DNA of 64,000 bases from an uncultured virus (IMG/VR IMGVR_UViG_3300008050_000035) (IMGVR_UViG_3300008050_000035:1-64000), one strand, 5' to 3'. Shown: positions 18,626 to 57,517, counted from the stretch's first letter. Numbers and translations: made by a program. Notes: generated by a model not told the origin, from the letters alone.

Positions 18626-19050
18626 ATAAAACTCACTACGTCAAAGACACCAGTACCACTGCTATTTCGCAGCGGCTTAGTAGGCTCACCTAACAGCACA
18701 AGGCGTCCCTCTTCCGGTCGAAGTCCATTATACATGATTGTACCTCGAACACCTTCTAAAAGAACAGCATTTCCATGAGTCTTTAAAATCTCAGCTTCAC
18801 TAGCCATAAAGGGGACATAGAATTTCCTTTTAGATCTTAAAGCTTGGACCTTAGCCACCATAGTGCCAGGCTCTCTTTTGACAAGATGTGCAATTTCTGC
18901 AGGAACTCCATCCTTATCAAGTGCATCTGCATCATAAACCTGCAGTACCACTACCTCAATAACAGTACGCCCAAGTGCTTGAGGGCGCTTGGATAGCAAT
19001 CTGTTTTGTCGAATTCGCTCCTGTAAGGCATTCCCTGGAATAACTGACAT
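18622..19050 (-). CDS. Putative spike N-terminal (OB-fold-like) baseplate protein
   Basis: 142 aa directly after the hub gene, where the gp5/gpV OB domain normally sits; the assignment is mostly positional. Confidence 0.35.
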   Translation of the reverse strand: MSVIPGNALQERIRQNRLLSKRPQALGRTVIEVVVLQVYDADALDKDGVPAEIAHLVKREPGTMVAKVQALRSKRKFYVPFMASEAEILKTHGNAVLLEGVRGTIMYNGLRPEEGRLVLLGEPTKPLRNSSGTGVFDVVSFI

Positions 19051-22000: not shown

Positions 22001-25000
22001 CAAAATGCTGAAGTTCTGGCTCCAACATCATGGCTCCTAGGAGCTGGTGAGTAGTCGCAAATGCACGACTGTCGTTAGCCGCACTGGTTCCCTTTATGGC
22101 TTGCTGCAATTCGGTACCAAAGCTTTGAACAAGAATTTCTGCTCTATCTCCACCCTGATTCCAAGTGACGTCTACGACACGGCCGTTAATCAAAACTTCT
22201 AGCAGATCAGGATCATTGCTATAGCCAACTCTTAGCTGTACATTTAGTCCTGGTCGAAGAACCAAAGCGCCAAAAGGTTGGTCAAGAGCACTTCCCTCAT
22301 TGACAGAATCTCCACTAAGCTTACTAGCTTCCCCTGGAATATTAATTTTGCTGGAATCTGAAAAATAGTCCAAATCTACAACAGCATCACGCTTGGTGCC
22401 ATCCAGAGTGCCAGCTACGTTTAGTAAACTAACGACAGCATGATCAGCAGGACTTTTTCTATTCTGCTCAACAGTAAAACTAGTTACGCCATTATAGCTG
22501 AAGAAATCATCAAAGTTGAGAAGCCGACTCTCAAACTCATCTTCTTCAACAAAGAAAAGCTTAAAGGTAGGATAAGCCCGAGACATTCTGCGCTTGCGAC
22601 CGAAAATATCATTAGCACTATTCAAAGCCAGCTTGTTTAGCGACTCTTTATTGAACCTATGAGAAGGGTCGGATTCTCGCTCAACAAGTGTACCCCTTAA
22701 CCTGTCTGCTAAATTCTCAGGAATTTCTTTCTGGTCAAGATAGCCACTACGACTACCAAACATCTGATCTACAGATGCTACTGCATCCTGAAGCTCATTA
22801 TATTGAGCCGCAGTAACACGACGCGGATACTGTACCCCGCCACCCTGACCAAAAGCACCTTCAAAATTACTTAAACGTACATCTTCTACATGGACACTGG
22901 ACAGAGCTTTGGCTTCTTCTATTGAGATTGACAATTCTGGTTTGGTTGAATCCTTCTCAGTCCCCATGCGTGCTTCTTCAGCTTCACTCTGCAATGCATC
23001 AACAGCATTAGTGATATTGCCAATATGCTCTGAAATCGCTTCGGTACTTTCAGGATTGGGATAAAACGGAAACCCTGTTGCGCCTTTTTTTCCAGTGTCC
23101 GTAGCCTCAGCATTGTAATACTGAGGTAAACTAATGCGATCGTCCGTAGCTGGCTCCTGTACGTACCTGTCACCACTAGGCTCATAGGAACCACCGCTCT
23201 CAATCTTCTTCATGGAGTTGTAGCAATTGCTAACAATATCACCCATAACATCTTGAATAGCAGTAATTACAGTTCTGTTGTGCGCATCTCCATCTTCATA
23301 CATGTTCCACATATAAAAATCAGGAGGGCAAGCAGCAATATCTCCGTAATACGGATGATGCGGTAAGTCCATATCAGGTAATGCGGGAGAGCCCTGAATG
23401 CGCGCTCGCTTGTTCACACGACTGAGCCCCTGAAGGCCAAACGCCTTCAGGACGTCATAATCATTAAGCAGATCACGAGCGTAGCGTGCAAACAAGCTTT
23501 TGAAATATTCAATCTTTTTACTTTCTAAACTGGCTTCTGCGTGCCAAATAAATGGTCCTCCAGGAGGCCAAATGCCCTCCTGCTTATTAAAAAAGAACCA
23601 ATCCCAAGACGCTCCATCTGGTAGTAAGATAGGAACAGCAATCTGCCCTTTGGGAATGTCAGATGGCTGAGCAATACCGATATCTTGGTTTTCCTTACTA
23701 GCCTCACGAATATTGTCGCTTGTAGTACCACGCTCAGTCATAACGTACTTTGGCATATCGAAAAATCTATCAAACTGAAAATCACCACAACTTGCAGCTG
23801 TTTTCTTAAGCTGCTCAGTCGTACTTGCAAAGACTGGAGAGCCACCCTCTCCAGCAACAGTACCAAGTATATCGCCAAAGATAGTGCTACTCACATAGGA
23901 CTTGAAACGCTCTTCTACAAGATCTCTAACTGGCAATTGCCACATATAATTGTTAGCAATATCAGTTAGAACGTCATCATGCATCTCAGCCCAAAAATCA
24001 GCGTAGATACCACGATCACTATCATTCCATTGGCCAAACTTAGTTTTTAACGCCTTGTCACCACCATTGACAACAGTTGCCCATATAAAACTTACAGGGC
24101 GCTCGACAATAGTGCCAAGAGCACCCCAGCCAACCAAACCACCAGCATAGCCTGCTCCAAAACCTGTCTGTAGTTTTTTCAAATCAACAGATGTCAAACC
24201 GTTCTGCGGATGCCACTGTAGCCAATTTTGATTTTCTACCAAGTGTTCTACAACAGCACCAGTCGCAAGCGACTCTTCTAGAGGTTTTGTTTGATTAGAA
24301 GAACTGGGTCCAGGATATGGATTAACAGCAGCAACAGTAGCTAAGTAGAGCTGATAGCCCTTGAAAAGATTTGGCTGCACAGGTAGCTCGTAGAGTTCGT
24401 CCTGCACAAAATCAATAGTATTCCCGCCTGCCTGCACTGTGCCATAAGCAAGTTGGTCGTCAGACTCAGCAAGAATAGCACTAGCAGTCTGAATTGTCTT
24501 ATGAATCATTGTCCAATAGTCAAGAATCTTCTCCATCGGAACTTTACCAAGAACTTGCGTATCTTGGCTTGCCTGAAGAAGAGCACTAATGTCAAATTCC
24601 TTAGGGGTAATGTTTTCATCCGGAACTGAAGAAGCTGTAGGGGCAGCTACAGGTCTGCCCTCCTTGGCCACTTGGGCGTAAGCTGCTCTCCAAGCATCGC
24701 CTTGATGCCCACCGGCACCACCGCTTTGCGGAACACCACCAAACACCTGGTCTAAGGGAACTGCGTTCAAATTAGAAAAGATAGAGGATTCTGGCAAAGA
24801 TGTGCCAGCACCAACAATATTGCCAATACTGTCTGGGCCATTAGCCAAAGAACTGAAGTCATCGCCAAAAATAATCCAGTCATTATCACTCTTGTCTCTG
24901 TAAAGAGCCACATTATCATCTTCTACCAAGAGTGGCGATGTGACGTACGACAATTCGAACTGACCAAATTCATCCGACTCTTGGCGATATGTGTTAGCAC

Positions 25001-28000
25001 CAGCAAGCTGAGCAATGAGTACTTGCTGAAGTAACTCAGCTGCCTCATCTTTGAAAGCTAATTTGTAAACTGCATTTAAAACTTTAGAATATGCAACTTC
25101 TAAATCCTCTACTGCAGGAGCTGTACCATTAATAGCCTCACCAACGTAAGGGTTAGTTTCAGACAGTTCAATAGTATGACAACTCATGCCAGGATGTCCT
25201 TGCACAGTCATACTGTTACTACGAGTAACCATAGCACGCCTAAGGACTTCGATATCTGCAATTACTGGCTCTTCACCAGCTTCCGTGACGTTGTTGTACG
25301 TAGCAATCTGAATGTCATCAGGAGAGAAAGTACCCAAGAGCCTAGTAACAAAACTATCCACAGCGACACACCAACTATCCGTAATGCCACGAAAGTTACG
25401 TGCATTCGCATGCAGCAACCCTCGCATCGCAAGCAGCACTTCAGTCTGCTTGCTGACACCTGCAAGTCTTTGTGTGCCACTACCCTCGAAATCCACAGAG
25501 CAAAATTCGAAACTGTAAAACGGCTCAATGCTACCCAAATGCTGTTGGGTAGGAAACTCATACCCAAGAATAGGAATATTTGCCACTATGTGACGAAGAC
25601 CGCCAGCAACAGCAGTGAGAACAGTAGGGTCAGAATAAAAGCCTTTTTCAAGTTGTTCTTCGTTTCCAGGCCCAACTAAAAGCTTGTGGTGCTTCCACCA
25701 CACATTAGTAATCTTGCTGTCACGATCATAATACAGCCAACCGTCTCTCCAAAGATTGTCTAAGATCTGACCAACAGACTGAAGCTCTTCGTTGCTGATA
25801 TTGCCTTCTTTTGCTTCTTCTGCAATGTCTTCCTTGACAGTTGTTTGAGTAGGAGTTGTGAAAGAAGGGCTGGCAGTTAGTTCATAACTTCCAGCAACAC
25901 TGGTCTCCAAAGGACCACTTAAGTCCACGGGGACCATGCGACTAGAACGTTTCCAATCCTCTTTTAAAGCTGGAGTACCAGTCCATGGCGGATCAATACC
26001 TACTCCAAGATCTTCACTTTCCCAATATTCAAAATGAAGATGAGTTTGGTAATGCCAAACACTACTTCTCTCTCCACTTGGATTGTCCCAGAAATTCTGA
26101 TTAGAAGTTCTGGATATGTACTGATATCCATTAGAGCCAGAGGTCAGATATTCTTTTCTAGCTTCTACTATAGCATTGGCTTTAAATGCTTCATTCATAG
26201 GGCCACTACCACTCATCCAGCCAATGAGTGTTCCGGCAGGAATCTCCTCTGTGGCGTTAAGTGAATTCATTGCGGCTTCAGAAACACCACCAAGATGCAT
26301 ATACATACTCAGGTTGTTCCCATGAGACATTTGTATATAATTGCCCGCACTAGGAGCTTCGACATAATACCAAGCATTACGATACTTGATAGATTTAACA
26401 AACGAGCCAACGGGGAACGTTTCCCCAAATTCTCTAGTGACATTCGCTCCTCGAAAATTAACTTCTGGAACGATAGCCTTGATGCTGACTTCAAAATCTT
26501 CCTGATCGAAAGGCAACGAAGTAAGCTCTGTGTCATTCAAGTACGCAAGTTTCCAACTCCCACCACTAGAAGAATCCGTCAATTGAATATGACTGACAGT
26601 ACCTGCCTCAACAGCATAAATAGGCACTAAGACGTCTGGCTTATTTCGATCACGATCACCTGCACCAATGTCAGTACCCCAGTGCATACTTCCACCAGTT
26701 GGGCGGCCTGCCAAACGAGATCGAGTAGCTGCAGAACGCCAATGGACAGTATCTGTAACGCGCACTTCATCAACAGGCATGGGTACATCTTCGTTAGAGT
26801 AGCCTACTGGTGACACACGAGGACTGCCGTCTTTGCCGAGAGCACTACTGAAACGTCTACGTACTTTAACTCTGTCTACATGAAAAGTGTCAGTGGGATC
26901 AAAACGCAATTCCCAACCATCTACCTCAGTACCACCTGCGGACGGTAGCTTGTCCTTGGCAACACGTAACGTCTCTTTGTGCGCATCACTAATCATACCG
27001 GTCCACTCCGCTGGAAGCCTAACTTCCTTGTACGCAAAGAAGTGAAACAGTGCACCACCATGAACACTGTTCATCTTTGCAACAATGCCATTTCTAAGGA
27101 ACTTCCATTCACGATACAACTCTTCAGTACTTGCTGGAGGTCCAGAATGCAAACCAAAGGTATGTCTGTCATTGCGATACAAAACGGCACTAAACAGCGC
27201 TCCCCAAAGAGTGCTGGTTAGAATCTCTTTCTCAACATCAATAGAGAAAGCTTTCATAAGGGCATCTCGTTGCAACAGGTTGATATACCTAGTATAGATG
27301 CGTGATTGCGCTGGACGTTGAACAAATTCTGATTGAGCCATTTTGTCAGGCAAGGGGAGAAGATCAAAAATCTCCCCTTGGTGAAACTCTTCCATCTGTT
27401 CAATAGTCAATTCTTGACGATCTTGATACTGACCTTGAACAGCACTCCAAGAACGGATCTCATTATCAGAATTACCAAGCTTCGGCAGAATAGTGTGTTT
27501 TTGTTTTTTTTGACCAGCCTTCGCATCCCATCCAATAGTGGTTTCAATACCACTGCCTTTTGTATGCGAAGTCTCACCTGTAACTGGAAGCGTATGCCAA
27601 TCTTTACGATAGAGCCAATTGTGAACATATGGGAAATAATTAAACCAAGTAAGATCTAATTGCATAATCCATGTGTCGCTGCTGCCCTGCATGGGCGCAA
27701 CATTCAAACCAGTCATAGTAAACGCCATGGCCTGGCTGTAGGGCCAGTGTGGCACAATCGTTTCTCTAAGGAAACGATTTTCAACATAACAGAAAGGACT
27801 GTGTCTAAATTCAACAACCAGTCTATGCATATCTAAAACCATAGGACCTGTGAAGGGAATGGTGATGCTTACAGCCACCTGCCCATGTCCGCTTGGAACT
27901 TTGGTTGTCGCGCGCTGACGCAGTGCTCTCCACTGCCAAACCAAATCTTCAATCTGAATATCAATGTTCGTTGGCGGAACTACGAGGTCAATGTCATTGA

Positions 28001-28064
28001 TAACAAAAACATTCTTACGGTATCCGTAAGTCGGCTCGAATTGGTCCATGGTCTTGGTTGGCAT
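19050..28064 (-). CDS. Giant baseplate hub / tail-associated lysin: M23 metallopeptidase domain plus gp27/VgrG-like hub segments and hydrophobic helices
   Basis: About 3004 aa (ATG 28064, TGATG overlap). M23 motifs HWGTD (26670-26684), YMHL and HLHFE (26028-26042). Hub-type motifs LRPGLNVQLRVGYSND...INGRV and YRGEIVILGNPRIRPWD...FEVEQIVHQFS..TGFISEI. Confidence 0.75.
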   Translation of the reverse strand: MPTKTMDQFEPTYGYRKNVFVINDIDLVVPPTNIDIQIEDLVWQWRALRQRATTKVPSGHGQVAVSITIPFTGPMVLDMHRLVVEFRHSPFCYVENRFLRETIVPHWPYSQAMAFTMTGLNVAPMQGSSDTWIMQLDLTWFNYFPYVHNWLYRKDWHTLPVTGETSHTKGSGIETTIGWDAKAGQKKQKHTILPKLGNSDNEIRSWSAVQGQYQDRQELTIEQMEEFHQGEIFDLLPLPDKMAQSEFVQRPAQSRIYTRYINLLQRDALMKAFSIDVEKEILTSTLWGALFSAVLYRNDRHTFGLHSGPPASTEELYREWKFLRNGIVAKMNSVHGGALFHFFAYKEVRLPAEWTGMISDAHKETLRVAKDKLPSAGGTEVDGWELRFDPTDTFHVDRVKVRRRFSSALGKDGSPRVSPVGYSNEDVPMPVDEVRVTDTVHWRSAATRSRLAGRPTGGSMHWGTDIGAGDRDRNKPDVLVPIYAVEAGTVSHIQLTDSSSGGSWKLAYLNDTELTSLPFDQEDFEVSIKAIVPEVNFRGANVTREFGETFPVGSFVKSIKYRNAWYYVEAPSAGNYIQMSHGNNLSMYMHLGGVSEAAMNSLNATEEIPAGTLIGWMSGSGPMNEAFKANAIVEARKEYLTSGSNGYQYISRTSNQNFWDNPSGERSSVWHYQTHLHFEYWESEDLGVGIDPPWTGTPALKEDWKRSSRMVPVDLSGPLETSVAGSYELTASPSFTTPTQTTVKEDIAEEAKEGNISNEELQSVGQILDNLWRDGWLYYDRDSKITNVWWKHHKLLVGPGNEEQLEKGFYSDPTVLTAVAGGLRHIVANIPILGYEFPTQQHLGSIEPFYSFEFCSVDFEGSGTQRLAGVSKQTEVLLAMRGLLHANARNFRGITDSWCVAVDSFVTRLLGTFSPDDIQIATYNNVTEAGEEPVIADIEVLRRAMVTRSNSMTVQGHPGMSCHTIELSETNPYVGEAINGTAPAVEDLEVAYSKVLNAVYKLAFKDEAAELLQQVLIAQLAGANTYRQESDEFGQFELSYVTSPLLVEDDNVALYRDKSDNDWIIFGDDFSSLANGPDSIGNIVGAGTSLPESSIFSNLNAVPLDQVFGGVPQSGGAGGHQGDAWRAAYAQVAKEGRPVAAPTASSVPDENITPKEFDISALLQASQDTQVLGKVPMEKILDYWTMIHKTIQTASAILAESDDQLAYGTVQAGGNTIDFVQDELYELPVQPNLFKGYQLYLATVAAVNPYPGPSSSNQTKPLEESLATGAVVEHLVENQNWLQWHPQNGLTSVDLKKLQTGFGAGYAGGLVGWGALGTIVERPVSFIWATVVNGGDKALKTKFGQWNDSDRGIYADFWAEMHDDVLTDIANNYMWQLPVRDLVEERFKSYVSSTIFGDILGTVAGEGGSPVFASTTEQLKKTAASCGDFQFDRFFDMPKYVMTERGTTSDNIREASKENQDIGIAQPSDIPKGQIAVPILLPDGASWDWFFFNKQEGIWPPGGPFIWHAEASLESKKIEYFKSLFARYARDLLNDYDVLKAFGLQGLSRVNKRARIQGSPALPDMDLPHHPYYGDIAACPPDFYMWNMYEDGDAHNRTVITAIQDVMGDIVSNCYNSMKKIESGGSYEPSGDRYVQEPATDDRISLPQYYNAEATDTGKKGATGFPFYPNPESTEAISEHIGNITNAVDALQSEAEEARMGTEKDSTKPELSISIEEAKALSSVHVEDVRLSNFEGAFGQGGGVQYPRRVTAAQYNELQDAVASVDQMFGSRSGYLDQKEIPENLADRLRGTLVERESDPSHRFNKESLNKLALNSANDIFGRKRRMSRAYPTFKLFFVEEDEFESRLLNFDDFFSYNGVTSFTVEQNRKSPADHAVVSLLNVAGTLDGTKRDAVVDLDYFSDSSKINIPGEASKLSGDSVNEGSALDQPFGALVLRPGLNVQLRVGYSNDPDLLEVLINGRVVDVTWNQGGDRAEILVQSFGTELQQAIKGTSAANDSRAFATTHQLLGAMMLEPELQHFGRWEFGQLYQVGEGQDARLDFVDYSRKGFLGAFKATNRVTDWMLNNPIITATLAIGGAAVLGRIPGVGRLLRPAAGLARTGAVATRGVKNFSWVSKWLGTLGVNGPGTAFYRSALTNIVGKRIGVATTVANKVVQADIRAVSRLVKNQQALRGMALRDAGGTAGRALVRESQRIQANAIRRAAVGSIDDAARALAKADAEIANLVLKGQWMSHPMQQIAGQSVGLLRSVGIKPISRVWGGIWYRAPLLVGGVSISALPLAGLDWAFSELYDASVGRIKAYFRQKQVSLFLSPQDDNLFPPHPKDYMEIYDKSWTKVWEDMKMWVVKTGVSAFVTDDELGYQAARWFGNKPALDKRVAPASCSFRLISTTIWDVFHEMSLRHPGWIYAARPYGHAFRYTMFFGVPSQRYWSQPGDNEFVRRANDLNEVLGNSSVDMNEYRRLYGDVVDDGYTSLLLEDFDANLDEEAIVAASVDRNSANDMVTNTVYVNDPATQQSVPVEITTGTVYETDPVDVDKIKSSLSQLTYTPRAMKEYLRALNLRFKPFRRYHSVTSEHDIVWNGLMSSENAVHNAVDVTYFEENAKFGDSPASSAMFKAHAFIPEHDLRVLPLQPSYNVRGYQMAMRYGVGSLLHTMREMYRGEIVILGNPRIRPWDVGILSDSYNDMVGPFEVEQIVHQFSHETGFISEIKPSAMVIANETSSWPVLEAIKVAALAVRDVEDQYEGLGATDPGARFRFLDWVLGFGAGNDSSSLQGALDLGTPHAATEYRKYLEERAAELRPFDPFANPKTGKSDLEEIREIEDELGSVKRGLTQFTGGALGVATGALALKGIPWVFGAAGKTVPKFLRMQSGTAMGVMGILGAGGAVFAGNRLTPSLTWLLGSPILFLQALRGDSIMLVPLMKNGNPIVSGVNLTDPSMIWNNFKGDLGRWVEDTLDGTRDLTDIWRLYGKHAWRRNEHLKRTFDANSDVWNQNKQLYAELTGES

Positions 28065-31000
28065 CAATACTCTCCCATTAGTCGATCAGTATAAGATCTC
28101 GTGATTGGACGTCTAGTGTCATTAATTCTAACTGACCCAGCAGCATTACCTCCAGTCATCGCCCCTACGTACTTCATAGCTCCGTTGAGCCCGAATCCGT
28201 TTGGCAACACACCTTTGATTTGATAACTGCTTGGGCGCGACATATACGCACCACCACTATTGATTGGCCTGTCTATCATACCATAATCACTTGACGGCCT
28301 GCCAAGACTTTCTGGCGCTATGTGACCTCCACTGTTTTTAAATAAACTTCCTTGAGCAATAGCATTGCTAACTTGAGGAGAGGTGTACTCTCCGGGTGCT
28401 GAAAGAGGAGTGGCAGCATAGCCTGGCGTGCCAATCGCACCCATTGCAAACATACTTGCAGCTGCACCCATTGCGATGGGCGCAGCCATCCTTTTGTCAA
28501 GCTTGTCTATGAGGTTGGTGATTTGCCCAAGCCCTTTAGAAAAACCAGCCATACCATGTTGAGGAGAATCACTAAACGCAGCCATACCAGCAGTTTCCAT
28601 ATTGGAGCCTGCTAGAGCTTGGATAAACATATTGGGACCAGCAGAAAAAGCATGCGACATAGCCTTAGCAGTGCCAGGCATATTGGTTCCGGCAGCTACA
28701 GCAGAGTTGGCCACCTTCAGAGACGCATCTACAAAATTGTCAATATTGACGCTAAGCGTCCTACCCTTCGTAATTTCAGCAGCCCACTGGCCGGTCCTGC
28801 CCTCCCCTACAATATCACCAACTTTAAAGCTGGTGTTCTGGTTATGAAAAATCTTATTCTTTAGAACATTGCGAAGCTCCTCAGCAGAATCTTGAGAAGG
28901 ACTGGACATTAGCCGCTCAACGGCTCCACCCACCTCTTCGGCAAGAGGTACAAATACTTTCAGCTTCTTAGCCTTGAGAAGTACGTTCTCCTCAAGGGCA
29001 CCAAGGATATCTCGATGCGCACGAATCTGATCAATATTGGCTCCATAGTTGCCAAGAGCCTCGTGCAACCCACGAAGACGAACGTCCATCGCACCAGTTT
29101 GCTGCGAAATACCCATCTCCTTCATCATGTCTTGCACAATTTTATCATCTAGGCCCCCACCAAGAGTATCTCCATAAGAAACCATACCCTTCTTGATAGC
29201 AGTACCCACACCGCCTTTAAGCACACGACTTTGAAGCTCCATAGCTAAACGCGCAGGATCCCCGACTTGTGCAGCAAGTCTCCTTCTCACTATTGCGCTA
29301 GTCTTGGGATCAAGCATCATGCTAAGTGCTGTATCACCATCCATATCCATGAATGCTTGAGGCGCAAGTCCAATGTCACCAGCTGCAGTAAGTACACGAG
29401 GCACAATCATGCGACCACCACCCTGCCCACCGGTAAATTGATCAATATTGTCAATCAGAGTGCGAAAAAACTTGCGATTAGCATCATTGCCTTTGTCACC
29501 AGTAGCTGCTGCAATATCGGCGAAGCTTTTAATATCTTTGCGAAAGATACTTTTCATGAACTCTTCACCTCGCATCTGCTTAAACTGCTGATCGCCAGCA
29601 GCATCCAAACCACTAAAAACCTGGAGTTGCGCTCCTTTGATTTTATTAAAAAAAGCATCAGTACCTTGAAGAGCACTAACTTCTCGTAGATCACGGAACA
29701 CTTGGGACATAAAAACATTACCTGCAGAAATAAGAGGATGTCGTCCACTCACGCGAATAAGACCGCTGCCAAGCCTTTTGTTTCCTGCTTTATGTTCCAT
29801 TCCTGTAAAGAACATGCGAGCACTCTCAGCCAATTGCTTACTGCTAGTGCCACCAGCTTTCTGACCATGAAGTTCGCTTAGCATCATGGTCGCGTCAGCA
29901 AATACAGCAGTGCCACCAGTACTTCTAAAAAGTTGGTTAGCTACACGACCCTGCTGGCGGCTAGTAAAGCCAGCGCCAGTAGTAAGGTTATAAGAACTAA
30001 CTCTAGGAGAACTACTGCCCCGAACCTTGCCACGAGCAAGGTTCGCAATACTGGTACTCATAAGATCCAAAGCATTACTGCGCCAAGTCTTGAGACTTTC
30101 ACGCAGAGGGTCACCACCTGTAGTAGCATGATCGGCCAAACGCTTTTGCAAACCACTCACAAGCTGACCATACGCAGCACTGACCTCTTTGCTTTGCCCT
30201 CCAGCAATTCGCACACTAGTCCCACTGCCAGCCTCATAGGCTTCCATGCCTGGCATATACATACTGCTAGATCCAAAAACATCCTGAACGGCTCTGCCAA
30301 TGTGCGCAGGAGCGTCACTAAAATCTAAAATGGCTCCTTGCTTCTGAGTACGCAACCAATCTGTCATCTGTCCAGTTGACCTGCCACCCTCAGTGAAAGC
30401 GTCACCAAACTGACTGTACTTGAGGCGCGTAGCACCTCTTTCGGTGAAAGCGTCTACAGCATTACGATGCCCAGTGACACTGCGCCCCATACCCATCATT
30501 TGCTCAGCGAGAGCATAGTGACGACCAAAGCCAATTTTATTAGTATAGATGCCAGCAACTGCGTCAACAGACTGCTCTTTGCTCATACCTAGCTGAAGCA
30601 TGCGTTCGTATGCTGTCTGAGCGAATCTGCGTTCAAGACCAACACGCGCAGCACCCCAGTCTCCGGCGGATGGGCCAACTTGAACCGTGTCAATAAAACT
30701 AACAAGTCCGCGTCTCATCGCCGCAAGAGCATCAGCGCTTCCAGCACCAAGTCCACGAACCATCTTCTGAAGTTTCGCCTGGTCAATTCCGCCTTTACCA
30801 ACACCTCCGCCCTCTGCCCCATGGTATACGCCAGCAAGCATCATTCCAATATTCTTAGCACCAACACCACGCTGCTGCATTAATTCAAATGCAGCTTGAG
30901 CGTAAATCTGATGTCCCTGCTTGCCTAGCATACCTCCACCAGCATCTGAAAGAGCCTGCGCTCGAGCACGCAATGTTTTGTGGTTTACGCCAAACATTTT

Positions 31001-33187
31001 TGCGGTTCCCGCTATTTGGTGTGTAAAACCAAAAGTACCTTTGCTAAACATGTCACTACTAATGTACGCAGCACCATACTTCATGTCTCCCAATCCAGAA
31101 AGTTCTGAAGCAAGCTCACCCAGCCTTTTGTCTTGTCTGTACAGACGGTCAATACCTGCTTGCCCGATATTCTCCATGTTGCCTTTAAAGCTAGCGCTAA
31201 ACATTTTAAGAAAATCCATCTTTCTAATCTGTTGGCCACGAAAATAAATCATGTCTTTCTTGTAACTGATGCCAGTACGATCTAAAGCAATATCAAGAGC
31301 TTCAGTAGCTGGATCCCGAGGTAAGTACTTTCTGCCGGAACCAGTCTCTCCAACATACAAATTCTGAGCCAATTCTTCTGGAGTGAATTTACCATTGCCT
31401 GCAAGAATGCGTGTCAATGTTTCACTAGCCGCATAAGCGTGTTTCTCTGGATTGAGAACAGAGAATTGAATAGGCTTACTTACTCTGTGAGACACTCCAG
31501 TGACCCCCATGCCAGAATCACCATAAGACTTACTTAAATGACCAGCATTAGAAAAATCAACAACCATCATCTTGTTTAAACCACCAGACGCATGAGAACC
31601 CCAACCCTGAGACACTTCACTAATGGCACGGTGTCGAAGCACTCCCGGACTGAGTTTACTCTCTCCAGGGCGAGTAAACTTATTTCGAAGACGATCTAAA
31701 GAAACATCAGAAGCCTGCCCAACACCACCTAGGTAAGCACCCCCAAACGTACGAAGAGAATCAAGAGAGTAGCTACTTCGACCAAGGACTTGCGCTTCAC
31801 GCGCAGTGATAGGAAGCTGGTGTCTGTCGACAGCAAACTTGCCATACGCACTCTGAAGAGCGCTAAAGCCACTTTTCGCTCTAAGGCCTAGTACAGATCT
31901 ACGCTCCTGCCCAAAGCCAGTAACAAGGCGCTTAGCGCCTACAGCACCACCCTCAAAATCACCTCCAGAACCAAGCTGAGCAATAAAACGCATCGCCTCA
32001 CCAGAGTCCATTGCTCCAAAAGTATGCCCAAACACTGCATTCGCACCAAGTGCTATTTGTCGACGTATATGTCTTCCGATATACCCAGAAGTCATAGCTG
32101 CACGATCAACGTGTTGAGTAGCCATGCCCATATTTTCCCTAAACGCCTTCCAGTCAACGCGTCCTTTCGCTGCACGAGAACCAATGTCTTGAATAAGATA
32201 ATCAGAAAAACTAGTCAATGCTCCGCCAGCCCTAAGCTGTCCAACCGTCATGTTTGCAGCATCAAGTCCTTGTTGCCTAACAAGCTGGTGTGCGTTTTGA
32301 ACATTCATGGCATGTTTTGGAGTCGAGTAAAGAGTGTTGAAACTCTGACCACTGCGAAACAATCCATGCTCGTGTAAGGGTACGCTAGCTACCCATTGTC
32401 CACGATTCAAAATTTGTGCTTGCCTAAACTGCCTGCCGCCTTCAGTAAAAGAGGCAACACGCATTTTGTAATCACCTTGAGACAGGTGGGCATTCAGACG
32501 CAAAGCCCTTCGTTCCCAAGGTTTGAGAGCTTCTTTAGCTTGCCTCCTGCTAAGTAAGGTTCCAACATCAATAGAATTGTAAGCAACACCGCCTTTTGGG
32601 ATTGAAAAATTAGGAGACTGAAGCTGACCGCTGATGTTTCTAAATTCACTTAAATTCTCTTCCCATTTTAAAAGAGTCTCGGCAGAACCACTATCAAGAA
32701 GAGATCTAGTAACTTTCTCGGCAAACTCTTCTACAGAGTTTGGACTAGCCTCACTAAGCAAACGGCTAATCTCTCCTTTCAGAGAGCTAACGGCAGAAGC
32801 ATTAAGACCACTAGCAGGATCTTCAAGTGTTACGGAAAGTGTCTGAAGAAGTGCATTGTGTTGCTCTACGGTGCCAATGATTTTGCGTAACTCATCAGAA
32901 TCACCAAGCCCTCTTTTAATTTTATCAACAACTTTGGCTGCACGCTCACTTCTGGCTTGTTGAGACTTTCGAGCTGCAAGGCCTTTGGCCTTGCCAATAG
33001 CCTGAGAAGGCGTAGCTTTAGAAAGAGGGTTGTTTAACGCCTCGTTTCTTTTAAGGTGTCTTTGCCCATGCCAAATACCAACAGCTACAGGGCTTAACCC
33101 TACGGCAGTCTTAAGTAGCGAAACACCACTTTGAACAGTGGTGTCAGCATCTTCGTGAAACTGGTTAAAGCGATCATTAGTAGCCAC
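28064..33187 (-). CDS. Putative single-chain two-barrel (double-psi beta-barrel) virion RNA polymerase
   Basis: 1707 aa, GTG start. Ordered motifs: YGDSG (D557), KMFSASFKG (K661/K668), AAYISSDMFSKG, GAARVGLE, NLARGKVRGS (K1054), SGRHPLI (R1149), AFMDMDGDT (D1281/D1283/D1285 at 29333-29347), QTGAMDVRL and EENVLLKAK. Confidence 0.72.
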   Translation of the reverse strand: MATNDRFNQFHEDADTTVQSGVSLLKTAVGLSPVAVGIWHGQRHLKRNEALNNPLSKATPSQAIGKAKGLAARKSQQARSERAAKVVDKIKRGLGDSDELRKIIGTVEQHNALLQTLSVTLEDPASGLNASAVSSLKGEISRLLSEASPNSVEEFAEKVTRSLLDSGSAETLLKWEENLSEFRNISGQLQSPNFSIPKGGVAYNSIDVGTLLSRRQAKEALKPWERRALRLNAHLSQGDYKMRVASFTEGGRQFRQAQILNRGQWVASVPLHEHGLFRSGQSFNTLYSTPKHAMNVQNAHQLVRQQGLDAANMTVGQLRAGGALTSFSDYLIQDIGSRAAKGRVDWKAFRENMGMATQHVDRAAMTSGYIGRHIRRQIALGANAVFGHTFGAMDSGEAMRFIAQLGSGGDFEGGAVGAKRLVTGFGQERRSVLGLRAKSGFSALQSAYGKFAVDRHQLPITAREAQVLGRSSYSLDSLRTFGGAYLGGVGQASDVSLDRLRNKFTRPGESKLSPGVLRHRAISEVSQGWGSHASGGLNKMMVVDFSNAGHLSKSYGDSGMGVTGVSHRVSKPIQFSVLNPEKHAYAASETLTRILAGNGKFTPEELAQNLYVGETGSGRKYLPRDPATEALDIALDRTGISYKKDMIYFRGQQIRKMDFLKMFSASFKGNMENIGQAGIDRLYRQDKRLGELASELSGLGDMKYGAAYISSDMFSKGTFGFTHQIAGTAKMFGVNHKTLRARAQALSDAGGGMLGKQGHQIYAQAAFELMQQRGVGAKNIGMMLAGVYHGAEGGGVGKGGIDQAKLQKMVRGLGAGSADALAAMRRGLVSFIDTVQVGPSAGDWGAARVGLERRFAQTAYERMLQLGMSKEQSVDAVAGIYTNKIGFGRHYALAEQMMGMGRSVTGHRNAVDAFTERGATRLKYSQFGDAFTEGGRSTGQMTDWLRTQKQGAILDFSDAPAHIGRAVQDVFGSSSMYMPGMEAYEAGSGTSVRIAGGQSKEVSAAYGQLVSGLQKRLADHATTGGDPLRESLKTWRSNALDLMSTSIANLARGKVRGSSSPRVSSYNLTTGAGFTSRQQGRVANQLFRSTGGTAVFADATMMLSELHGQKAGGTSSKQLAESARMFFTGMEHKAGNKRLGSGLIRVSGRHPLISAGNVFMSQVFRDLREVSALQGTDAFFNKIKGAQLQVFSGLDAAGDQQFKQMRGEEFMKSIFRKDIKSFADIAAATGDKGNDANRKFFRTLIDNIDQFTGGQGGGRMIVPRVLTAAGDIGLAPQAFMDMDGDTALSMMLDPKTSAIVRRRLAAQVGDPARLAMELQSRVLKGGVGTAIKKGMVSYGDTLGGGLDDKIVQDMMKEMGISQQTGAMDVRLRGLHEALGNYGANIDQIRAHRDILGALEENVLLKAKKLKVFVPLAEEVGGAVERLMSSPSQDSAEELRNVLKNKIFHNQNTSFKVGDIVGEGRTGQWAAEITKGRTLSVNIDNFVDASLKVANSAVAAGTNMPGTAKAMSHAFSAGPNMFIQALAGSNMETAGMAAFSDSPQHGMAGFSKGLGQITNLIDKLDKRMAAPIAMGAAASMFAMGAIGTPGYAATPLSAPGEYTSPQVSNAIAQGSLFKNSGGHIAPESLGRPSSDYGMIDRPINSGGAYMSRPSSYQIKGVLPNGFGLNGAMKYVGAMTGGNAAGSVRINDTRRPITRSYTDRLMGEY

Positions 33188-36100
33188 TTAAGTATCTCTC
33201 CATTGCTGTGCCAATATCAATGGCACGGTTATCATTGTAATCAACTTGTACAGTACTCATCATACCTTTCCATGGTGCTACATGCCAACTGCCACGACTT
33301 CCTGCAGTGCCAGTCATTTGAGTAAGTCCTCTACTCATAGCAGAACCTATCGGAACCCCAGGTTTGTTTTGTTGTAAGAAATCTGTACTCCCGTCTAGCA
33401 TAGGTTGTTGCATGCTTTTCTTGAGCTGTTTTTCCCATAAGCCGTAATCCGACAGCTCTGCACCCATCCTGTCGACATATCTAACCTGAATATCACTCAT
33501 GTCGACATCCTCATGCCAACCCACCCAATCTTCGGAAGGCATTGGCCCTTCTAGAGATCCAGCAACACGTGCTTCTTGAGCAGCTAAATGCGAATCGCTA
33601 ATAGCGTTATCAGCACCAGCCCAAAGATTCTCATCTCCAGAATCCATTCGGCTCCAAATTGCCTTGTAAAGGTGTTGTTGGTCGGCGGGAACCATCTCCA
33701 TAATACGATGACGATCTTTACCAGAAGCATGAGCGAAAGCATTGAAGAATTTTCTTTCACTATCAGGAAGTGTCCAGTACATACTTAGAGAGCTCCCTTG
33801 AGGATTCACACCAGCACGAGTATTGGCTTGAGCCCAGCGGTACTGTGCTGCTGCACGAGAATCTCCAGAAAGTTCTGCCTGTTCGCGCAACCTTGCCCAT
33901 TTTAGAAATTCTAATTTATCAAAGTACTCGTTTGCACTATCAGCCTTGTGTCTCCACAGAGGCTTACCTTCCCATCCCATCATATTTAAAGTGCTGTTCA
34001 TGGCTGGTCGAAACCAATCGCGCCATGGCTTATCCCAAAAAGCCATAGGTGTACCATATAGACGCTCGTACTCATACTGCTCAATAGCATCTCTGTCACT
34101 CATGAGTTTTTGCACGGGACGAAAGCCCATAGGTACGAGATATTCTCCTGGTGCTGTTACCCGACGTGCTGCTCGCTGTCCCGCAGCCCAAGCAGCTCGG
34201 GTTAATCCCGAGCCTGGTAGCCTGATAGCATTCTTGTGTAGTCTGTCATCACTAAATCCACTAACTTGCTCTGAGTGATTGCGATCCACTGCCTCCATGA
34301 AAGCAATTTGCTTCTCATTGTAAGCTCCCTCCATGCGCTGCTTGTACACAGCTTGCTTGTAAAGAGTGTATTCCTGAGAAAGTGGCGCTACGTCACTAAG
34401 GATGGCAAATCTAAATAAGGCGGGGTAAGCCTCTGGATCTACCCCTCGTAGTTCAGGGTGTAAGCCTGCATAGCCTGCACCTGGCAAGCGTCCTTCTCCC
34501 CATTCTATTGAGCGATATGGGTCTCCCCATTTGAACTTGTCTGGCAGCCAGCTAGGCATATTGTTGGCAAGCGGATTGCGACGATCTATCTCGCTACGCA
34601 TTCTAGGAAAGACGCGACGCAAAAATTCATTTGAAAACAATGCACCACCCATGTTCATCTCCCAGAAACGAACACGGCTGCTAGTCATCAAACTAGCATC
34701 TGCCAGCTGTTGGCTGTCAGCCGCCCAAACATCATCTCCAGTTAAGCCCTGCTGGATAACATTCTTAGCCCAGCCAGTCATACCTTCCAGCTCTCTGAAT
34801 TGGTAAGACAAAAAACTCAATTGATTGGTAGCACTGTAAGGACTTGTCGGCACACCGTGATGAGCTCCCAAAGCTGTGGCTGGCTCAAAGCGCGACCCTT
34901 TGTACACATTTCCATACTCAAGCCCACCATCTTGTCCAGGACGAATCCATTCGCCTGCATGCATAACTCTTGCAGGCTTGATTAGCCTGCCAATAGTACT
35001 TGAGAGCACACCGCCAATTATTGGCACGTCTGAAAACGCAGCATTACTTATGGGATAAGGTCTATCCCAATACTGCTGTGTTTCTAATTCATAAGTAAAG
35101 TTTTGACGAATCCACTTGCCTAGGGGACTTATCTTGTCCTCATCTGCACCCCAAACACCTTTCTCGCGCACTCTGTTCATCATGAGAGAATACTGATGTG
35201 GTCTGTAATAGTCTGTTTCACCACCCTCGAATGGAGTGCCACCTGCTTCCCACCACCTACTTGATTTAACGGCAACCATTTTTCTGCCAGAATAGATGTC
35301 ACGCAGATCGTCTGCAGTTTCCTTACTGCCTAACAGGCCACCAGTGAGAAGCTGATGTGTGCCAAAAATAGCAGCTCCGACACTTGCCCACTTGCCCAGC
35401 CGGCCTGCTGAACTGAATCCCATATCGCCAATTCGACGACGCAAAGCTTTGTCTGCACCGACATCTGCACCAAAGAAACTATAGTAGGCTTGAGTACCAA
35501 AACCTTTGGCTTCCTTCTTAAGGCGAGCAACCAGGTTGGGGGTGTCTCCATACTTGGCGCTAATGTCGCGCAACCTACGCTCTAGCGCTTCGTTCATAGG
35601 GTTGCCTTGCCTGTAGGTGTCCAGCTGCTCTTCAGCCCTGTAGAATGCAGTATTGAGGTCTTGCATCATCTCTAAACGCTTGTTGTCATACACACTGGTG
35701 CGCAAGTGTTTCATCAAATCGCGTCGTTGCCGAAACCCTTCATGAGGTAGGTTGTTAGCCAAACCGCTAACATTTTTATAATAGAGATCTCGCACATTGC
35801 TGTTTGCCAATTGTACCTGACGGACTTTGTCTGCCTGTAAATCTAATTTCAAGCGCCTAGGTCCAGCAGACTCAAGCATCGTCTGGGCTAGACTCATATT
35901 GCGACCAGGCAAACTAACACTGGTGGCCATAATGCCACCAGTTGCTAACAGCGCACCAGTTTCCCAATCGGTACTTCCAGGAGCGAAACCCTCAAGGGTC
36001 CGACGCAAATAATTGAAAGGGTTCAGTGCATTGGCACGAGCGACATCCATGCTGACAGCACCGGTTGCAACCCCTTGCATAACGCCTTGATCAAACCCAG

Positions 36101-37277
36101 GAAGAATCATTTGGCCAAAGAAACTTGCAGCTGCAGCAAACATAGCCGTGCGCGGCTGCTTGGCCATCTTGCCAACAGCATACCCGACACCGGCGCTTAC
36201 CGCCCCACTAGCAAGAATTTGCCCAGGCATTCCATATTGTCTTCGTACCCAATCTGCTTGGCTTGCCGCAAGTACAGTACTTCCAGCAAGTGCAGCCCTG
36301 CCTCCAAAACGCATAAACATTGAGGAAGCTGGACCTGGACGAACGCCAGGAGATACACCCAAAATACTTTTGAATGCCTTTCCACCAGACTCACCAAGGA
36401 ACTGATCTGCCACACCTGAGACAAGACGATTAAATCTACCCATTTCAAATGCAGCCACACCTCGAATCATCGTAGTACGTCGAGCCAAATCACTTAAGTC
36501 TTTAAGGTCTCCAACCGAACTAGGAACTGGCATGAAGCTAGCTTGTTTTCTAACCCACTTTCCAGCAGCATCTTGCTTTGAGCCGAGAAGTACTTCTTTT
36601 TCATTGAAAGCATCATCAGCATACATATCTGCAGCAGCAAACATGCCAGTAGCAATTCTATTGACACCGCGCTCTTTAGTGAGTGGGTTGACAACTTCAT
36701 GACTCATAGCCTGCAAAGATATGCTGTCACTTAATAATTTTCTATTGCCTCCAAGCCAATGCCCAGTACTTTCGTCTAGTCTTCCACCTAGCACGCTGTA
36801 CAAGTTCCCACTGGAGCCACGTGGCTCAAACACCATGGCGTCAGCCAAGTGCTGAGAAGCTCCAAGCATGCCTTCAGTGATTCCAGCTGCTGTCATGCCG
36901 GCACGATCAAGCCCAGTGGCGTACTTAAGCCAATTGTAAGTACTACTAGACTCAAGAGCTTCACGTCCCCAGACAGTAACGCCTTCCGTGCTGCCAGAAC
37001 CAACCTTATACCCCATGGATGTAAATGGACTTAAGATCTCAGGAACACGAAAAGTATTTAAAATTTGGAACGGGCTCAGATTCCCGCTAAGCCGAGAACG
37101 AGCCGCAATGTAGTCAATTGGACGCCGGCCATTCGACATAGGCTTAGTAGCTGCATACATAGCACCCGCACCAGCTGCAACCGCAACCGCAAGCTTTGTC
37201 ATCTGACTGCCAGCACTATTGTAAGGTTCTGTGGAGTCACCATTCCAGGTGACCCCACCATAAGACTTAAGGGCCAT
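33177..37277 (-). CDS. Tape-measure-like / ejected virion protein
   Basis: 1366 aa immediately after two tail-chaperone-like genes. The N-terminal half is G/A-rich with several hydrophobic helices; the C-terminal half is rich in W/Y/P motifs (RWWEAGGTPFEGG, YWDRPYP, GDPY...GEGRLPGAGY). Confidence 0.65.
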   Translation of the reverse strand: MALKSYGGVTWNGDSTEPYNSAGSQMTKLAVAVAAGAGAMYAATKPMSNGRRPIDYIAARSRLSGNLSPFQILNTFRVPEILSPFTSMGYKVGSGSTEGVTVWGREALESSSTYNWLKYATGLDRAGMTAAGITEGMLGASQHLADAMVFEPRGSSGNLYSVLGGRLDESTGHWLGGNRKLLSDSISLQAMSHEVVNPLTKERGVNRIATGMFAAADMYADDAFNEKEVLLGSKQDAAGKWVRKQASFMPVPSSVGDLKDLSDLARRTTMIRGVAAFEMGRFNRLVSGVADQFLGESGGKAFKSILGVSPGVRPGPASSMFMRFGGRAALAGSTVLAASQADWVRRQYGMPGQILASGAVSAGVGYAVGKMAKQPRTAMFAAAASFFGQMILPGFDQGVMQGVATGAVSMDVARANALNPFNYLRRTLEGFAPGSTDWETGALLATGGIMATSVSLPGRNMSLAQTMLESAGPRRLKLDLQADKVRQVQLANSNVRDLYYKNVSGLANNLPHEGFRQRRDLMKHLRTSVYDNKRLEMMQDLNTAFYRAEEQLDTYRQGNPMNEALERRLRDISAKYGDTPNLVARLKKEAKGFGTQAYYSFFGADVGADKALRRRIGDMGFSSAGRLGKWASVGAAIFGTHQLLTGGLLGSKETADDLRDIYSGRKMVAVKSSRWWEAGGTPFEGGETDYYRPHQYSLMMNRVREKGVWGADEDKISPLGKWIRQNFTYELETQQYWDRPYPISNAAFSDVPIIGGVLSSTIGRLIKPARVMHAGEWIRPGQDGGLEYGNVYKGSRFEPATALGAHHGVPTSPYSATNQLSFLSYQFRELEGMTGWAKNVIQQGLTGDDVWAADSQQLADASLMTSSRVRFWEMNMGGALFSNEFLRRVFPRMRSEIDRRNPLANNMPSWLPDKFKWGDPYRSIEWGEGRLPGAGYAGLHPELRGVDPEAYPALFRFAILSDVAPLSQEYTLYKQAVYKQRMEGAYNEKQIAFMEAVDRNHSEQVSGFSDDRLHKNAIRLPGSGLTRAAWAAGQRAARRVTAPGEYLVPMGFRPVQKLMSDRDAIEQYEYERLYGTPMAFWDKPWRDWFRPAMNSTLNMMGWEGKPLWRHKADSANEYFDKLEFLKWARLREQAELSGDSRAAAQYRWAQANTRAGVNPQGSSLSMYWTLPDSERKFFNAFAHASGKDRHRIMEMVPADQQHLYKAIWSRMDSGDENLWAGADNAISDSHLAAQEARVAGSLEGPMPSEDWVGWHEDVDMSDIQVRYVDRMGAELSDYGLWEKQLKKSMQQPMLDGSTDFLQQNKPGVPIGSAMSRGLTQMTGTAGSRGSWHVAPWKGMMSTVQVDYNDNRAIDIGTAMERYLSGY

Positions 37278-56842: not shown

Positions 56843-57517
56843 TTACCTCGAAAAACTGTTGCCGCGACGGCTATTGAATCCACGCTTGTGCGAGCGTCCA
56901 TTACTTGCAAACATGGCACCGAAGCCAGCACCACCAAGCATTGCTCCGCTACGAAACATGTTGTGACGACCTTCAGTGCTGTGAAAGCCCCTAAGCCCCT
57001 TATGAACAACACCCTTGTGCTTGTTCCAAGCTCGACTCATTGGGCCCCATTGGGCGTTAGCCCCGATCTTGCTATCAATACCAGCATAAACGCTATTGCT
57101 TATGTTCGCACCCTTCCTGCTAAAAGACCTGAAAGCCTTGCCAGCCACCATGCCTCCACCTGCACCCAAAGCAGCACCTTTGAGACGCTGACCTGGGTCA
57201 GCAGTCATGGCGCCAAGCATGCCACCGACAGCAGCGGCAGAACCATACCCCGCACTCCAAGAGGCAGCAGGGTTGACTCCAGATGTTATGCTTGGGGTTG
57301 CAGGCGCACGAGCACTCAACCCCCTAGGTGCTACTGCACTGATCCCTCGTGGAGTTCCAGTAACTCTTGGACGAGAGGGTGCACGAGCCGCTCTTCCGGG
57401 AACTGCTCTCATTCCGTAATCAGGAACACCTGTCCCTCTGGCAGCTTGAGCGCCTCTCATGCCGCGCATGACGCGACCTTCTTTAAGTGCAGCTTTTAAC
57501 ATTGGGTTAATTGCCAT
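56843..57517 (-). CDS. Very basic Gly/Ala/Arg-rich protein with glycine-zipper-like segments (possible internal or ejected protein)
   Basis: 224 aa, TAATG-coupled to terminase. Segments AAAVGGMLGAM, GAALGAGGGMVAG and GAMLGGAGFGAMF; very few acidic residues. Confidence 0.6.
   Translation of the reverse strand: MAINPMLKAALKEGRVMRGMRGAQAARGTGVPDYGMRAVPGRAARAPSRPRVTGTPRGISAVAPRGLSARAPATPSITSGVNPAASWSAGYGSAAAVGGMLGAMTADPGQRLKGAALGAGGGMVAGKAFRSFSRKGANISNSVYAGIDSKIGANAQWGPMSRAWNKHKGVVHKGLRGFHSTEGRHNMFRSGAMLGGAGFGAMFASNGRSHKRGFNSRRGNSFSR

Follow-up and report, generated by a model that had tools for sequence, protein, structure and literature searches.

We find that a 1707-amino-acid (aa) protein encoded by an uncultured virus (IMG/VR IMGVR_UViG_3300008050_000035) is, very probably, built around the core of a two-barrel RNA polymerase whose catalytic residues are intact. 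The window, that is the whole stretch of DNA analysed here, comprises 64,000 nucleotides (positions 1-64000), and the gene lies on its minus strand among the genes of a contractile tail. The full statement, that the protein is a diverged single-chain two-barrel RNA polymerase delivered by the virion, we hold at a probability of about 0.72. An earlier note, made from the sequence alone, had proposed such an enzyme hidden in a protein that looks like a tape measure. Invariant catalytic residues, a confident and globular structural model, and a beta half followed by a beta' half uphold this central claim. The coordinates that the earlier note gave for the open reading frame (ORF) and for the motifs DMDGD, RHP and KMFSASFK are correct (Table 1), as is the Gly/Ala-rich composition (23.7% G+A).

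The protein belongs to a large family. A word-indexed search returned 12 proteins of 41-100% identity, whereas an exhaustive phmmer search with residues 501-1456 against 1.84 billion representative proteins, run without a length filter, gave 79 matches at E<=1e-3, 74 of them at E<=1e-10 and 55 at E<=1e-30. These represent 79 clusters at 50% identity, most of about 1644-1830 aa, the longest relative having 1826 aa. Before conservation was counted, 17 of the 79 matches (179-1332 aa, mostly fragments at contig ends) were dropped, as were two proteins of the word-search set, P0002, identical to the query, and P0005 (1123 aa). The target and 69 full-length members, 21-82% identical to it, make up the alignment of 70 rows. 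Nine columns are invariant in all 70 members: Q466, G559, K661, K668, P1151, D1281, D1283, D1285 and E1400. Near-invariant positions are R1149, G1284, G1053, K1054, G1057, G1365, D1368, K1405 and K1407 (counts in Table 1), together with K716 (69 of 70), E852 (66) and R854 (69); the residues of AAYISSDMFSKG and GAARVGLE are conserved in the family too. Five of the six residues singled out in the earlier note (K661, K668, D1281, D1283, D1285) fall within the nine invariant columns of 1707 (hypergeometric P = 6e-12), and the three aspartates and two lysines whose conservation it had proposed to check are present in 70 of 70 homologues. The R-x-P motif that it had named is likewise conserved. The sixth residue, D557, had been picked by likening SYGDSGM to NFEDSIL, and is G in 49 of the 70 members, which leaves that likeness unsupported. 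Nor does DMDGD hold up as an unusual catalytic loop, being one variant (8 of 70) in a family led by the canonical DFDGD (21 of 70), with DADGD (8) and others besides. As far as an alignment can tell, it is exactly the residues of catalytic type that are under the strictest conservation. That they are invariant down to 21% identity argues for retained chemistry.

The predicted structure points to the same fold class. AlphaFold2 was run with the 70-row alignment on residues 441-1470 (1030 residues), the flanks 1-440 and 1471-1707 lying outside the model. Mean predicted local distance difference test (pLDDT) is 92.6 and the predicted template-modelling score (pTM) 0.91, with 857 of 1030 residues at pLDDT of at least 90. 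The model is a compact, globular, mixed alpha/beta structure, unlike an extended ruler. In it R-x-P follows directly after a strand, the Asp loop stands directly before the last barrel strand, and K661 and K668 sit on neighbouring strands (E219-223 and E228-233), inside the first and at the beginning of the second. The earlier note had proposed a fold search as a check. VIA-align 2, which is independent of Foldseek, was scanned over 48,161 representative PDB chains, and two-barrel RNA polymerases alone stand on top, filling the first 21 rows. Model residues 1-407 match subunits of beta/Rpb2 type, with vaccinia Rpo132 (6rfl_B, Z 11.6, root-mean-square deviation (rmsd) 4.2, 255 aa), Pol I (4c2m_B, Z 10.3), AR9 (7s00_C, Z 9.0) and phiKZ (Z 8.2). 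Model residues 467-1015 match human Pol I A190 (7ob9_A, Z 8.3), Pol II Rpb1 (9mu7_A, Z 8.3) and M. tuberculosis beta' (6edt_D, Z 7.4). Single-chain enzymes align across both halves: maize RDR2 (Z 9.6), QDE-1 (Z 9.5), P74 gp62 (Z 8.8) and P23-45 gp96 (8h2m_A, Z 7.2, 304 aa, rmsd 4.9; 8h2n_A, Z 7.0, 313 aa, rmsd 4.5), the gp96 scores ranking below the cellular-type and RDR/QDE-1 matches. Each of these four superposes on both halves at once, which speaks for a correct placement of the two barrels relative to each other. Isolated double-psi beta-barrels (DPBB) match model residues 615-857, the region that holds R-x-P and the Asp loop (designed DPBB 7dww_A, Z 6.2; CDC48A-N 9uw1_A, Z 6.3; VAT-N 1cz5_A, Z 5.6). 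Both types of barrel are recognised in the model: a beta'-type barrel, with the Asp loop of DxDxD form preceding the last strand of the region that matches double-psi barrels, and a beta-type barrel with its two lysines, K661 and K668, in the half that matches Rpb2/beta at Z 10.3-11.6. Foldseek against the PDB listed 47 matches, 46 of which are RNA polymerase large subunits, almost all second-largest ones. When the best 998 chains from Foldseek were rescored with VIA, 267 reached Z of at least 8, and the top 50 were all second-largest subunits (Z 10.3-11.6). The crAss enzyme gp66 (6vr4) and PolD were absent among the VIA matches listed for this model.

The phage encodes another candidate of the same kind. 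The contig that contains the window (74,973 bases) derives from the same phage as an IMG/VR record of 192,537 bases, which is circularly permuted relative to the window and 100% complete by CheckV. This complete genome holds one copy only of the 1707-aa family and no RNA polymerase that Pfam recognises. It also holds an ORF of 1090 aa (P0091), assigned to no known family, in which W-R-F-P-T stands 43 residues ahead of Q-G-D-D-D-G-D. In the 17 members of this second family R500, P502, D546, D547, D548, G549, D550, K312 and K320 are invariant. The 1090-aa model (pLDDT 84, pTM 0.77) has the same R-x-P and Asp-loop topology as that of the 1707-aa protein. Its best Foldseek match is QDE-1 (E 7e-12), the 27 matches at E<=1e-3 are all QDE-1, RDR2, gp64/gp62 or gp96, and VIA gives Z scores of 15.9 for RDR2, 14.2 for gp62, 14.1 for QDE-1, 9.9 for gp96 and 8.1 for crAss gp66 (6vr4). 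The 1090-aa protein is thus far closer to the QDE-1/YonO/gp64 group than is the 1707-aa protein, and is probably a second single-chain two-barrel polymerase, the non-virion one of this phage. For homologues of both proteins the longest contigs have the same lengths, 192,095 and 142,066 bases, which suggests that the two families co-occur. A profile of the 1090-aa family found no match in the phages ME3 and 0305phi8-36, in a search made without a positive control, and none in the genomes of two relatives, which are 41-44% complete.

The position of the 1707-aa gene bears on how the enzyme might be used. The structural module in the window is of myovirus type, with all genes on the minus strand, and the sheath (PHROG E 2.4e-32) and baseplate wedge bear out the contractile-tail context claimed by the earlier note. 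Downstream of the sheath and tube genes follow genes of 243 and 242 aa, then the three giants (1366, 1707 and 3005 aa), a pair of small genes and the baseplate wedge. The 1707-aa gene overlaps the upstream 1366-aa gene by 11 nucleotides and abuts the 3005-aa gene. From sheath to giants the order is fully kept in two relatives, in which the polymerase candidate is 39-40% identical and the neighbouring genes 45-78%; a search for related loci with an 11-row alignment gave 3 loci. GenBank notes on Bacillus phage 0305phi8-36 call gp140/141 'tail tube' and 'tail tube paralog', and state that gp145 (slot 1) and gp146 (slot 2) were detected in virions by mass spectrometry. Since the slot-2 protein gp146 is labelled 'hypothetical tape measure protein', tape-measure slot is a fair description of the place of the 1707-aa gene. 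That it is a gene of its own in this slot, as had been claimed, stands; that it lies between tape measure and hub is less secure, as the 1366-aa neighbour carries no tape-measure signature and slot 2 of 0305phi8-36 is itself labelled tape measure. The 3005-aa giant, orthologous to ME3 gp037 'peptidase', has a lysin-like region at about residues 2550-2720 and hydrophobic windows at 2065-2093, 2266-2288 and 2838-2922; it may act as the true tape measure, as the hub or as both. The C-termini of the 1707-aa and 1366-aa proteins are alike (window 28067-28138 and 33180-33251), sharing N-D-x-R-(9 aa)-[DE]-R-x-[LM]-x-x-Y-COOH, or in a wider form N-D-x-R...[DE]-R-x-[LIM]-x-x-[YF]-COOH, with identical residues at equal distances from the C-terminus. 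Orthologues at the loci L002 and L003 keep this motif, and ME3 gp035 and gp036 are without it. It may serve as a common docking or assembly peptide. Both proteins also have a Gly/Ala-rich hydrophobic stretch near residues 20-45. BLASTP between them found no meaningful similarity, and the ESM Atlas returned nothing for the 1366-aa protein. Within the 1707-aa protein the core lies between flanks of 440 and 250 aa, each of which contains a single hydrophobic stretch; there is no fusion to a long tape measure. Comparable hydrophobic windows occur within the first ~100 aa in 39 of 70 family members and within the last ~280 aa in 67 of 70. The mean top-residue frequency of the C-terminal 67 residues is 0.56, as against 0.34-0.38 elsewhere.

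Taken together, we propose the following course of events. Residues ~441-847 would form the beta/Rpb2-type half with K661 and K668, and residues ~907-1455 the beta'/Rpb1-type half, whose double-psi barrel would carry R1149-x-P1151 and the Asp triad, followed by long bridge-helix-like helices. Conservation and fold class are read from the alignment and the model; from them we infer chemistry and template, such that the Lys pair, R-x-P and the Asp triad would together bind two Mg ions and nucleoside triphosphates, and RNA would be made on a DNA template. The gene, which is translationally coupled to virion-protein genes between tail chaperonin and lysin-bearing giant, would yield an enzyme built into the particle through its termini. 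The hydrophobic flanking stretches, the highly conserved C-terminal 67 residues and the C-terminus shared with the 1366-aa virion-protein orthologue point to such incorporation. At infection the enzyme would be expelled via the contractile tail and would transcribe the first phage genes, the 1090-aa polymerase among them, which would take over afterwards, a division of labour like that of P23-45 gp96/gp64 as far as portions of PMC10770324 describe it. Coupling to virion-protein genes and a second polymerase at the head of the plus-strand block are what suggests a particle-borne, tail-delivered enzyme. Packaging and delivery are thus argued from gene position, from the mass spectrometry of the orthologous 0305phi8-36 neighbours and from the second, early-region polymerase. 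A bolder version of tail delivery is possible, and we put it forward tentatively. The polymerase would be cargo of the tail lumen, or a co-tape-measure. Held at the baseplate hub by the C-terminal peptide that they have in common, it and the 1366-aa giant would wait unfolded inside the tube of the contractile tail and leave before the DNA does. The hydrophobic stretches would form a membrane pore, at which the polymerase would refold; it would then transcribe and also help to pull in the leading genome end. Should this be true, polymerase-loaded tails would be no oddity of Thermus siphoviruses and would be widespread and overlooked in large myoviruses, ME3 included and perhaps the Microcystis phages.

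Several results weigh against a virion-delivered polymerase. The 1707-aa protein matches 0 Pfam families and 0 PHROGs (tape-measure and peptidase families included), phmmer found no match among PDB sequences, tblastn found none in 50,697 GenBank phage records, and the family profile retrieved only designed helical repeats from the PDB sequences. Neither PF00623 (RNA_pol_Rpb1_2) nor PF00562 (RNA_pol_Rpb2_6) matched the 192.5-kb genome at E<=10, in a search in which 14 of 14 control genomes matched; PF00940 matched neither this genome nor the controls. Comparison of the 1707-aa and 1090-aa families by hhalign gave a probability of 0.13%. No sequence method (Pfam, PHROGs, PDB-sequence profile, hhalign) therefore ties the family to known polymerases. 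Several accepted viral two-barrel members are likewise unseen by Pfam models. Given this shared blindness, the negative Pfam results limit sequence-family membership and not fold class. On the structural side, no Foldseek match in the PDB reached E<=1e-3 (best 8hyj_B, 0.026), and the VIA Z scores of 7-11.6 span only 250-380 of 1030 residues at 7-12% identity; VIA-align itself warns that models without a true match often reach Z 7-8 at best. The spacing from R-x-P to the Asp triad, counted from P1151 to D1281, is 107-148 residues in 70 of 70 members, longer than the spacing described for other such enzymes and outside the filter '[RK]xPx{20,100}DxDxD' of a survey of viral two-barrel enzymes (PMC10770324, Supplementary Data 4). 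With regard to delivery, gp145 and gp146 of 0305phi8-36 have no DxDxD and no match to the family profile, so the slot is not always occupied by a polymerase. Enrichment of k-mers in 92 intergenic stretches of the 192.5-kb genome gave no promoter-like motif, the only words found being those of tRNA T-arms and ribosome-binding sites. Presence in virions, ejection and activity of the 1707-aa protein are predictions.

Is the protein, then, an RNA polymerase, and is it carried by the virion? That it is a tape measure or a purely structural tail protein, with an old polymerase fold devoid of activity or with motifs that arose by chance, we regard as very improbable. Its slot-2 position, the label 'hypothetical tape measure' of the 0305phi8-36 counterpart and the G/A-rich composition would fit such a protein, as would a weak feature-based match to a TMP_3 tape-measure cluster in the ESM Atlas (0.89, under the tool's line of 0.9, next to unnamed viral clusters at 0.91). 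Yet 1030 residues modelled as a globular protein at pLDDT 92.6 do not resemble a ruler of extended helices, the tape-measure families of Pfam and PHROGs gave no match, and the residues that stay invariant in members down to 21% identity are exactly the catalytic ones. Improbable, too, is a two-barrel nucleotidyl transferase with another job, be it an RNA-dependent RNA polymerase of QDE-1/RDR2 kind, a primase-like replication enzyme or a DNA polymerase of PolD kind. The fold does not reveal template or product, and the best single-chain matches are RDR2 and QDE-1. However, QDE-1 also uses DNA templates (portions of PMC9508822), the two halves are each matched best by DNA-dependent enzymes (vaccinia, Pol I/III, plastid, AR9, phiKZ), and the genome encodes its own Pol III alpha and primase-helicase.

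Unlikely, in our view, is a genuine two-barrel RNA polymerase that is not carried by the virion and works in the cell, for instance on late genes, while the 1090-aa enzyme or the host polymerase starts infection. A gene within a late-looking structural operon, in a phage that encodes another polymerase, would be expected of such an enzyme. Against this, the gene stands between virion-protein orthologues and is coupled to them in translation, and the known phages that have two such enzymes use the one from the structural module in the virion (P23-45, in portions of PMC10770324). Moreover, hydrophobic flanks and an extremely conserved C-terminal tail, shared in outline with the virion giant, would be unexplained in a soluble cytoplasmic enzyme. 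We therefore favour the virion-delivered polymerase.

The system closest in logic is that of Thermus phage P23-45, in which a virion two-barrel RNA polymerase, gp96, is fused to the tape measure and paired with the non-virion gp64, an arrangement also noted for P74-26, G20c and TSP4 (Chaban et al. 2024, portions of PMC10770324). Like gp96, the 1707-aa protein is a single-chain two-barrel enzyme from the tape-measure region of the tail, with a DxDGD loop and with hydrophobic, membrane-type segments in the same polypeptide, and in both phages a second polymerase of gp64/QDE-1 type is encoded in the genome. Unlike the present phage, a myovirus of ~192 kb, P23-45 is a siphovirus with a non-contractile tail of 800 nm, and its polymerase makes up ~1100 residues at the N-terminus of a tape measure of 5002 aa that also has a metallopeptidase domain (same portions). 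Here the enzyme has a separate 1707-aa gene, a central core, no peptidase and a long insertion in the beta' barrel, and shares no detectable sequence similarity with gp96. The virion-packaged single-chain two-barrel polymerase gp66 of crAss-like phi14:2 (portions of bioRxiv 10.1101/2020.03.07.982082; PDB 6vr4) is likewise set in a larger protein and hidden from sequence searches save for the Asp motif, virion delivery being our proposal for the 1707-aa protein; gp66 comes from a podovirus, has 2180 residues and matches the 1090-aa enzyme. Enzymes of QDE-1/RDR2/YonO/gp64 type resemble the 1707-aa protein in having both barrels in one chain, beta then beta', and are its best whole-core structural matches, but they are cytoplasmic, lack tail-module context and have a short spacing from R-x-P to DxDxD. 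The virion polymerases of the jumbo phages phiKZ/AR9 and the vRNAP of coliphage N4 share the strategy proposed here, in which a particle-borne polymerase begins early transcription independently of the host and is followed by a second enzyme of the phage (portions of PMC13282480). The phiKZ-type enzymes, however, consist of 4-5 polypeptides and are packed in the head, the N4 vRNAP has a different, T7-like fold, and neither is encoded in a tape-measure slot. A YonO-like single-chain polymerase has been noted in 0305phi8-36 (portions of PMC7824862).

A culturable relative may exist in Acinetobacter phage vB_AbaM_ME3 (ME3), a jumbo myovirus. Its gp036, a 1603-aa 'hypothetical protein' (L016, NC_041884.1, 13173-17984, plus strand), occupies the same slot between orthologous giants as the 1707-aa protein does, and has at matching positions K632-x6-K639, R1175-x-P1177 and D1217-H-D-Q-D. 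In gp036, unlike in the 1707-aa family, the R-x-P spacing is 39 residues, the DHDQD loop has no Gly and the C-terminus is another; the family profile barely sees the protein (E 0.009). Going by slot and motifs, gp036 appears to be a distant counterpart. A search of BFVD with the 1707-aa model gave six viral matches at E<=1e-3, among them a 'minor tail protein' of 1423 aa from an uncultured phage (E 6.8e-8), a protein without a name (E 1.9e-6), ME3 A0A172Q021 (E 3.7e-5, probability 1.0), which is equated with gp036 by length only, a second ME3 protein of 798 aa (A0A172Q0S6, E 4.8e-5) and, more weakly, proteins of the Microcystis phages MaMV-DC and Ma-LMM01. ME3, Ma-LMM01, MaMV-DC and 0305phi8-36 are absent from the supplementary files of PMC10770324, File 3 and a.7z archive excepted.

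Two-barrel RNA polymerases carried in virions have been described in crAss-like podoviruses, in the P23-45 tape measure and, as split multisubunit enzymes, in phiKZ-like phages. The present protein would add a distinct, well-populated family of ~1700 aa, 79 clusters at 50% identity, in contractile-tailed phages of ~140-190 kb, encoded by a gene of its own at the tape-measure position and accompanied by a second single-chain polymerase. We found no description of such an enzyme in the tail module of a contractile-tailed phage in the literature searched, which included portions of PMC7824862, PMC13282480 and PMC12390700. Invisibility to Pfam, PHROGs and profile searches, together with a spacing that fails the survey filter, may explain this. 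A virion-delivered polymerase would explain how early transcription in such phages could be independent of the host, and it sharpens the question of how a globular enzyme of 110 kDa passes through, or is stored in, a tail. ME3 gp036 offers a culturable handle for experiments, and the family a new, very diverged branch for the study of the minimal two-barrel catalytic core.

Table 1. Coordinates of the candidate polymerase, its parts, the second polymerase and the structural genes (window positions unless stated otherwise)
Feature	Position	Strand	Remarks
1707-aa ORF (P0001)	28064..33187	-	runs 33187->28064, GTG start; candidate single-chain two-barrel RNA polymerase
Gly/Ala-rich hydrophobic stretch, residues 20-39	33071..33130	-	Kyte-Doolittle window 1.39
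beta/Rpb2-like half including first barrel, residues 441-847 (model 1-407)	30647..31867	-	VIA-align matches
K661-x6-K668 (KMFSASFK), lysine pair of beta-type barrel	31184..31207	-	70/70 each, spacing 6 in 70/70
beta'/Rpb1-like half, residues 907-1455 (model 467-1015)	28823..30469	-	VIA-align matches
G1053-K1054-x-x-G1057, start of second barrel	30017..30031	-	68/70, 66/70, 68/70; presumably comparable to beta' 'LLGKRVDYS'
Second double-psi beta-barrel with large insertions, residues ~1055-1297	29297..30025	-	barrel-only matches at model 615-857
R1149-H-P1151 (R-x-P)	29735..29743	-	directly after strand model E703-708; R 69/70, P 70/70
D1281-M-D1283-G-D1285, presumed Mg-binding triad	29333..29347	-	loop just before last barrel strand (model E848-851); D/D/D 70/70, G 66/70
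36-residue helix, residues 1346-1381 (model H906-941), with T-G-x-[LM]-D-V	29045..29152	-	would be bridge-helix-like; G1365 68/70, D1368 63/70; conserved residues taken by us to resemble the 'G-L-x-D-T' bridge-helix motif
E1400...K1405-x-K1407 charged cluster in next long helix	28967..28990	-	E 70/70, each K 69/70
Gly/Ala-rich, membrane-span-like hydrophobic stretch, residues 1567-1587	28427..28489	-	Kyte-Doolittle window 1.61
C-terminal 67 residues (...RINDxRRPITxxYxDRLxGEY-COOH)	28067..28267	-	best-conserved stretch of the protein
1090-aa ORF (P0091)	contig 70903-74175 = L005:11957-15226	+	no known family; outside window, near head of plus-strand gene block
Baseplate wedge	16603-17826	-	
Slot-3 giant, 3005 aa, hub- or tape-measure-like	19050..28067	-	phrog_20474 'endolysin' E 5e-47; BLASTP ME3 gp037 E 2e-13
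Slot-1 giant, 1366 aa (P0014), virion-protein orthologue	33177..37277	-	BLASTP ME3 gp035 E 7e-53; 0305phi8-36 gp145 E 5e-18
Tail-chaperonin-like gene, 243 aa	38015..38746	-	BLASTP ME3 gp033 'putative tail chaperonin' E 1e-10; 0305phi8-36 gp143 E 0.007
Three tail-tube paralogues, 222, 263, 224 aa	38759..40978	-	phrog_9206; BLASTP ME3 gp030-032, 0305phi8-36 gp140/141
Tail sheath, 795 aa	40998..43385	-	phrog_16991 E 2.4e-32; tblastn to ME3, MTATph1, 0305phi8-36 sheaths
Major capsid protein	47303-48607	-	
Portal	52073-53836	-	
Terminase	57517-59796	-	

Next to the terminase region lies an ORF of 983 aa (61604-63796 and on to contig position 64555) with a staphylococcal-nuclease domain (PF00565, E 1e-16). 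Read with the standard code, the window's structural genes are open. ARAGORN finds 24 tRNA genes at ~30.9-75.4 kb of the 192.5-kb record, one of them with anticodon CTA, which reads TAG; the genome further encodes EF-Tu (L006:11366-12565), a PTH2-like peptidyl-tRNA hydrolase and a Ro60/TROVE-like protein. An ORF resembling LAGLIDADG/HTH homing endonucleases divides the DNA polymerase III alpha gene (102008-105907 of the 192.5-kb record = L010:2008-5904) into two parts. The genome also encodes rIIA/rIIB, RecA, ThyX, two Clp proteases, a Lon-like ATPase and a TerF-like vWA protein.

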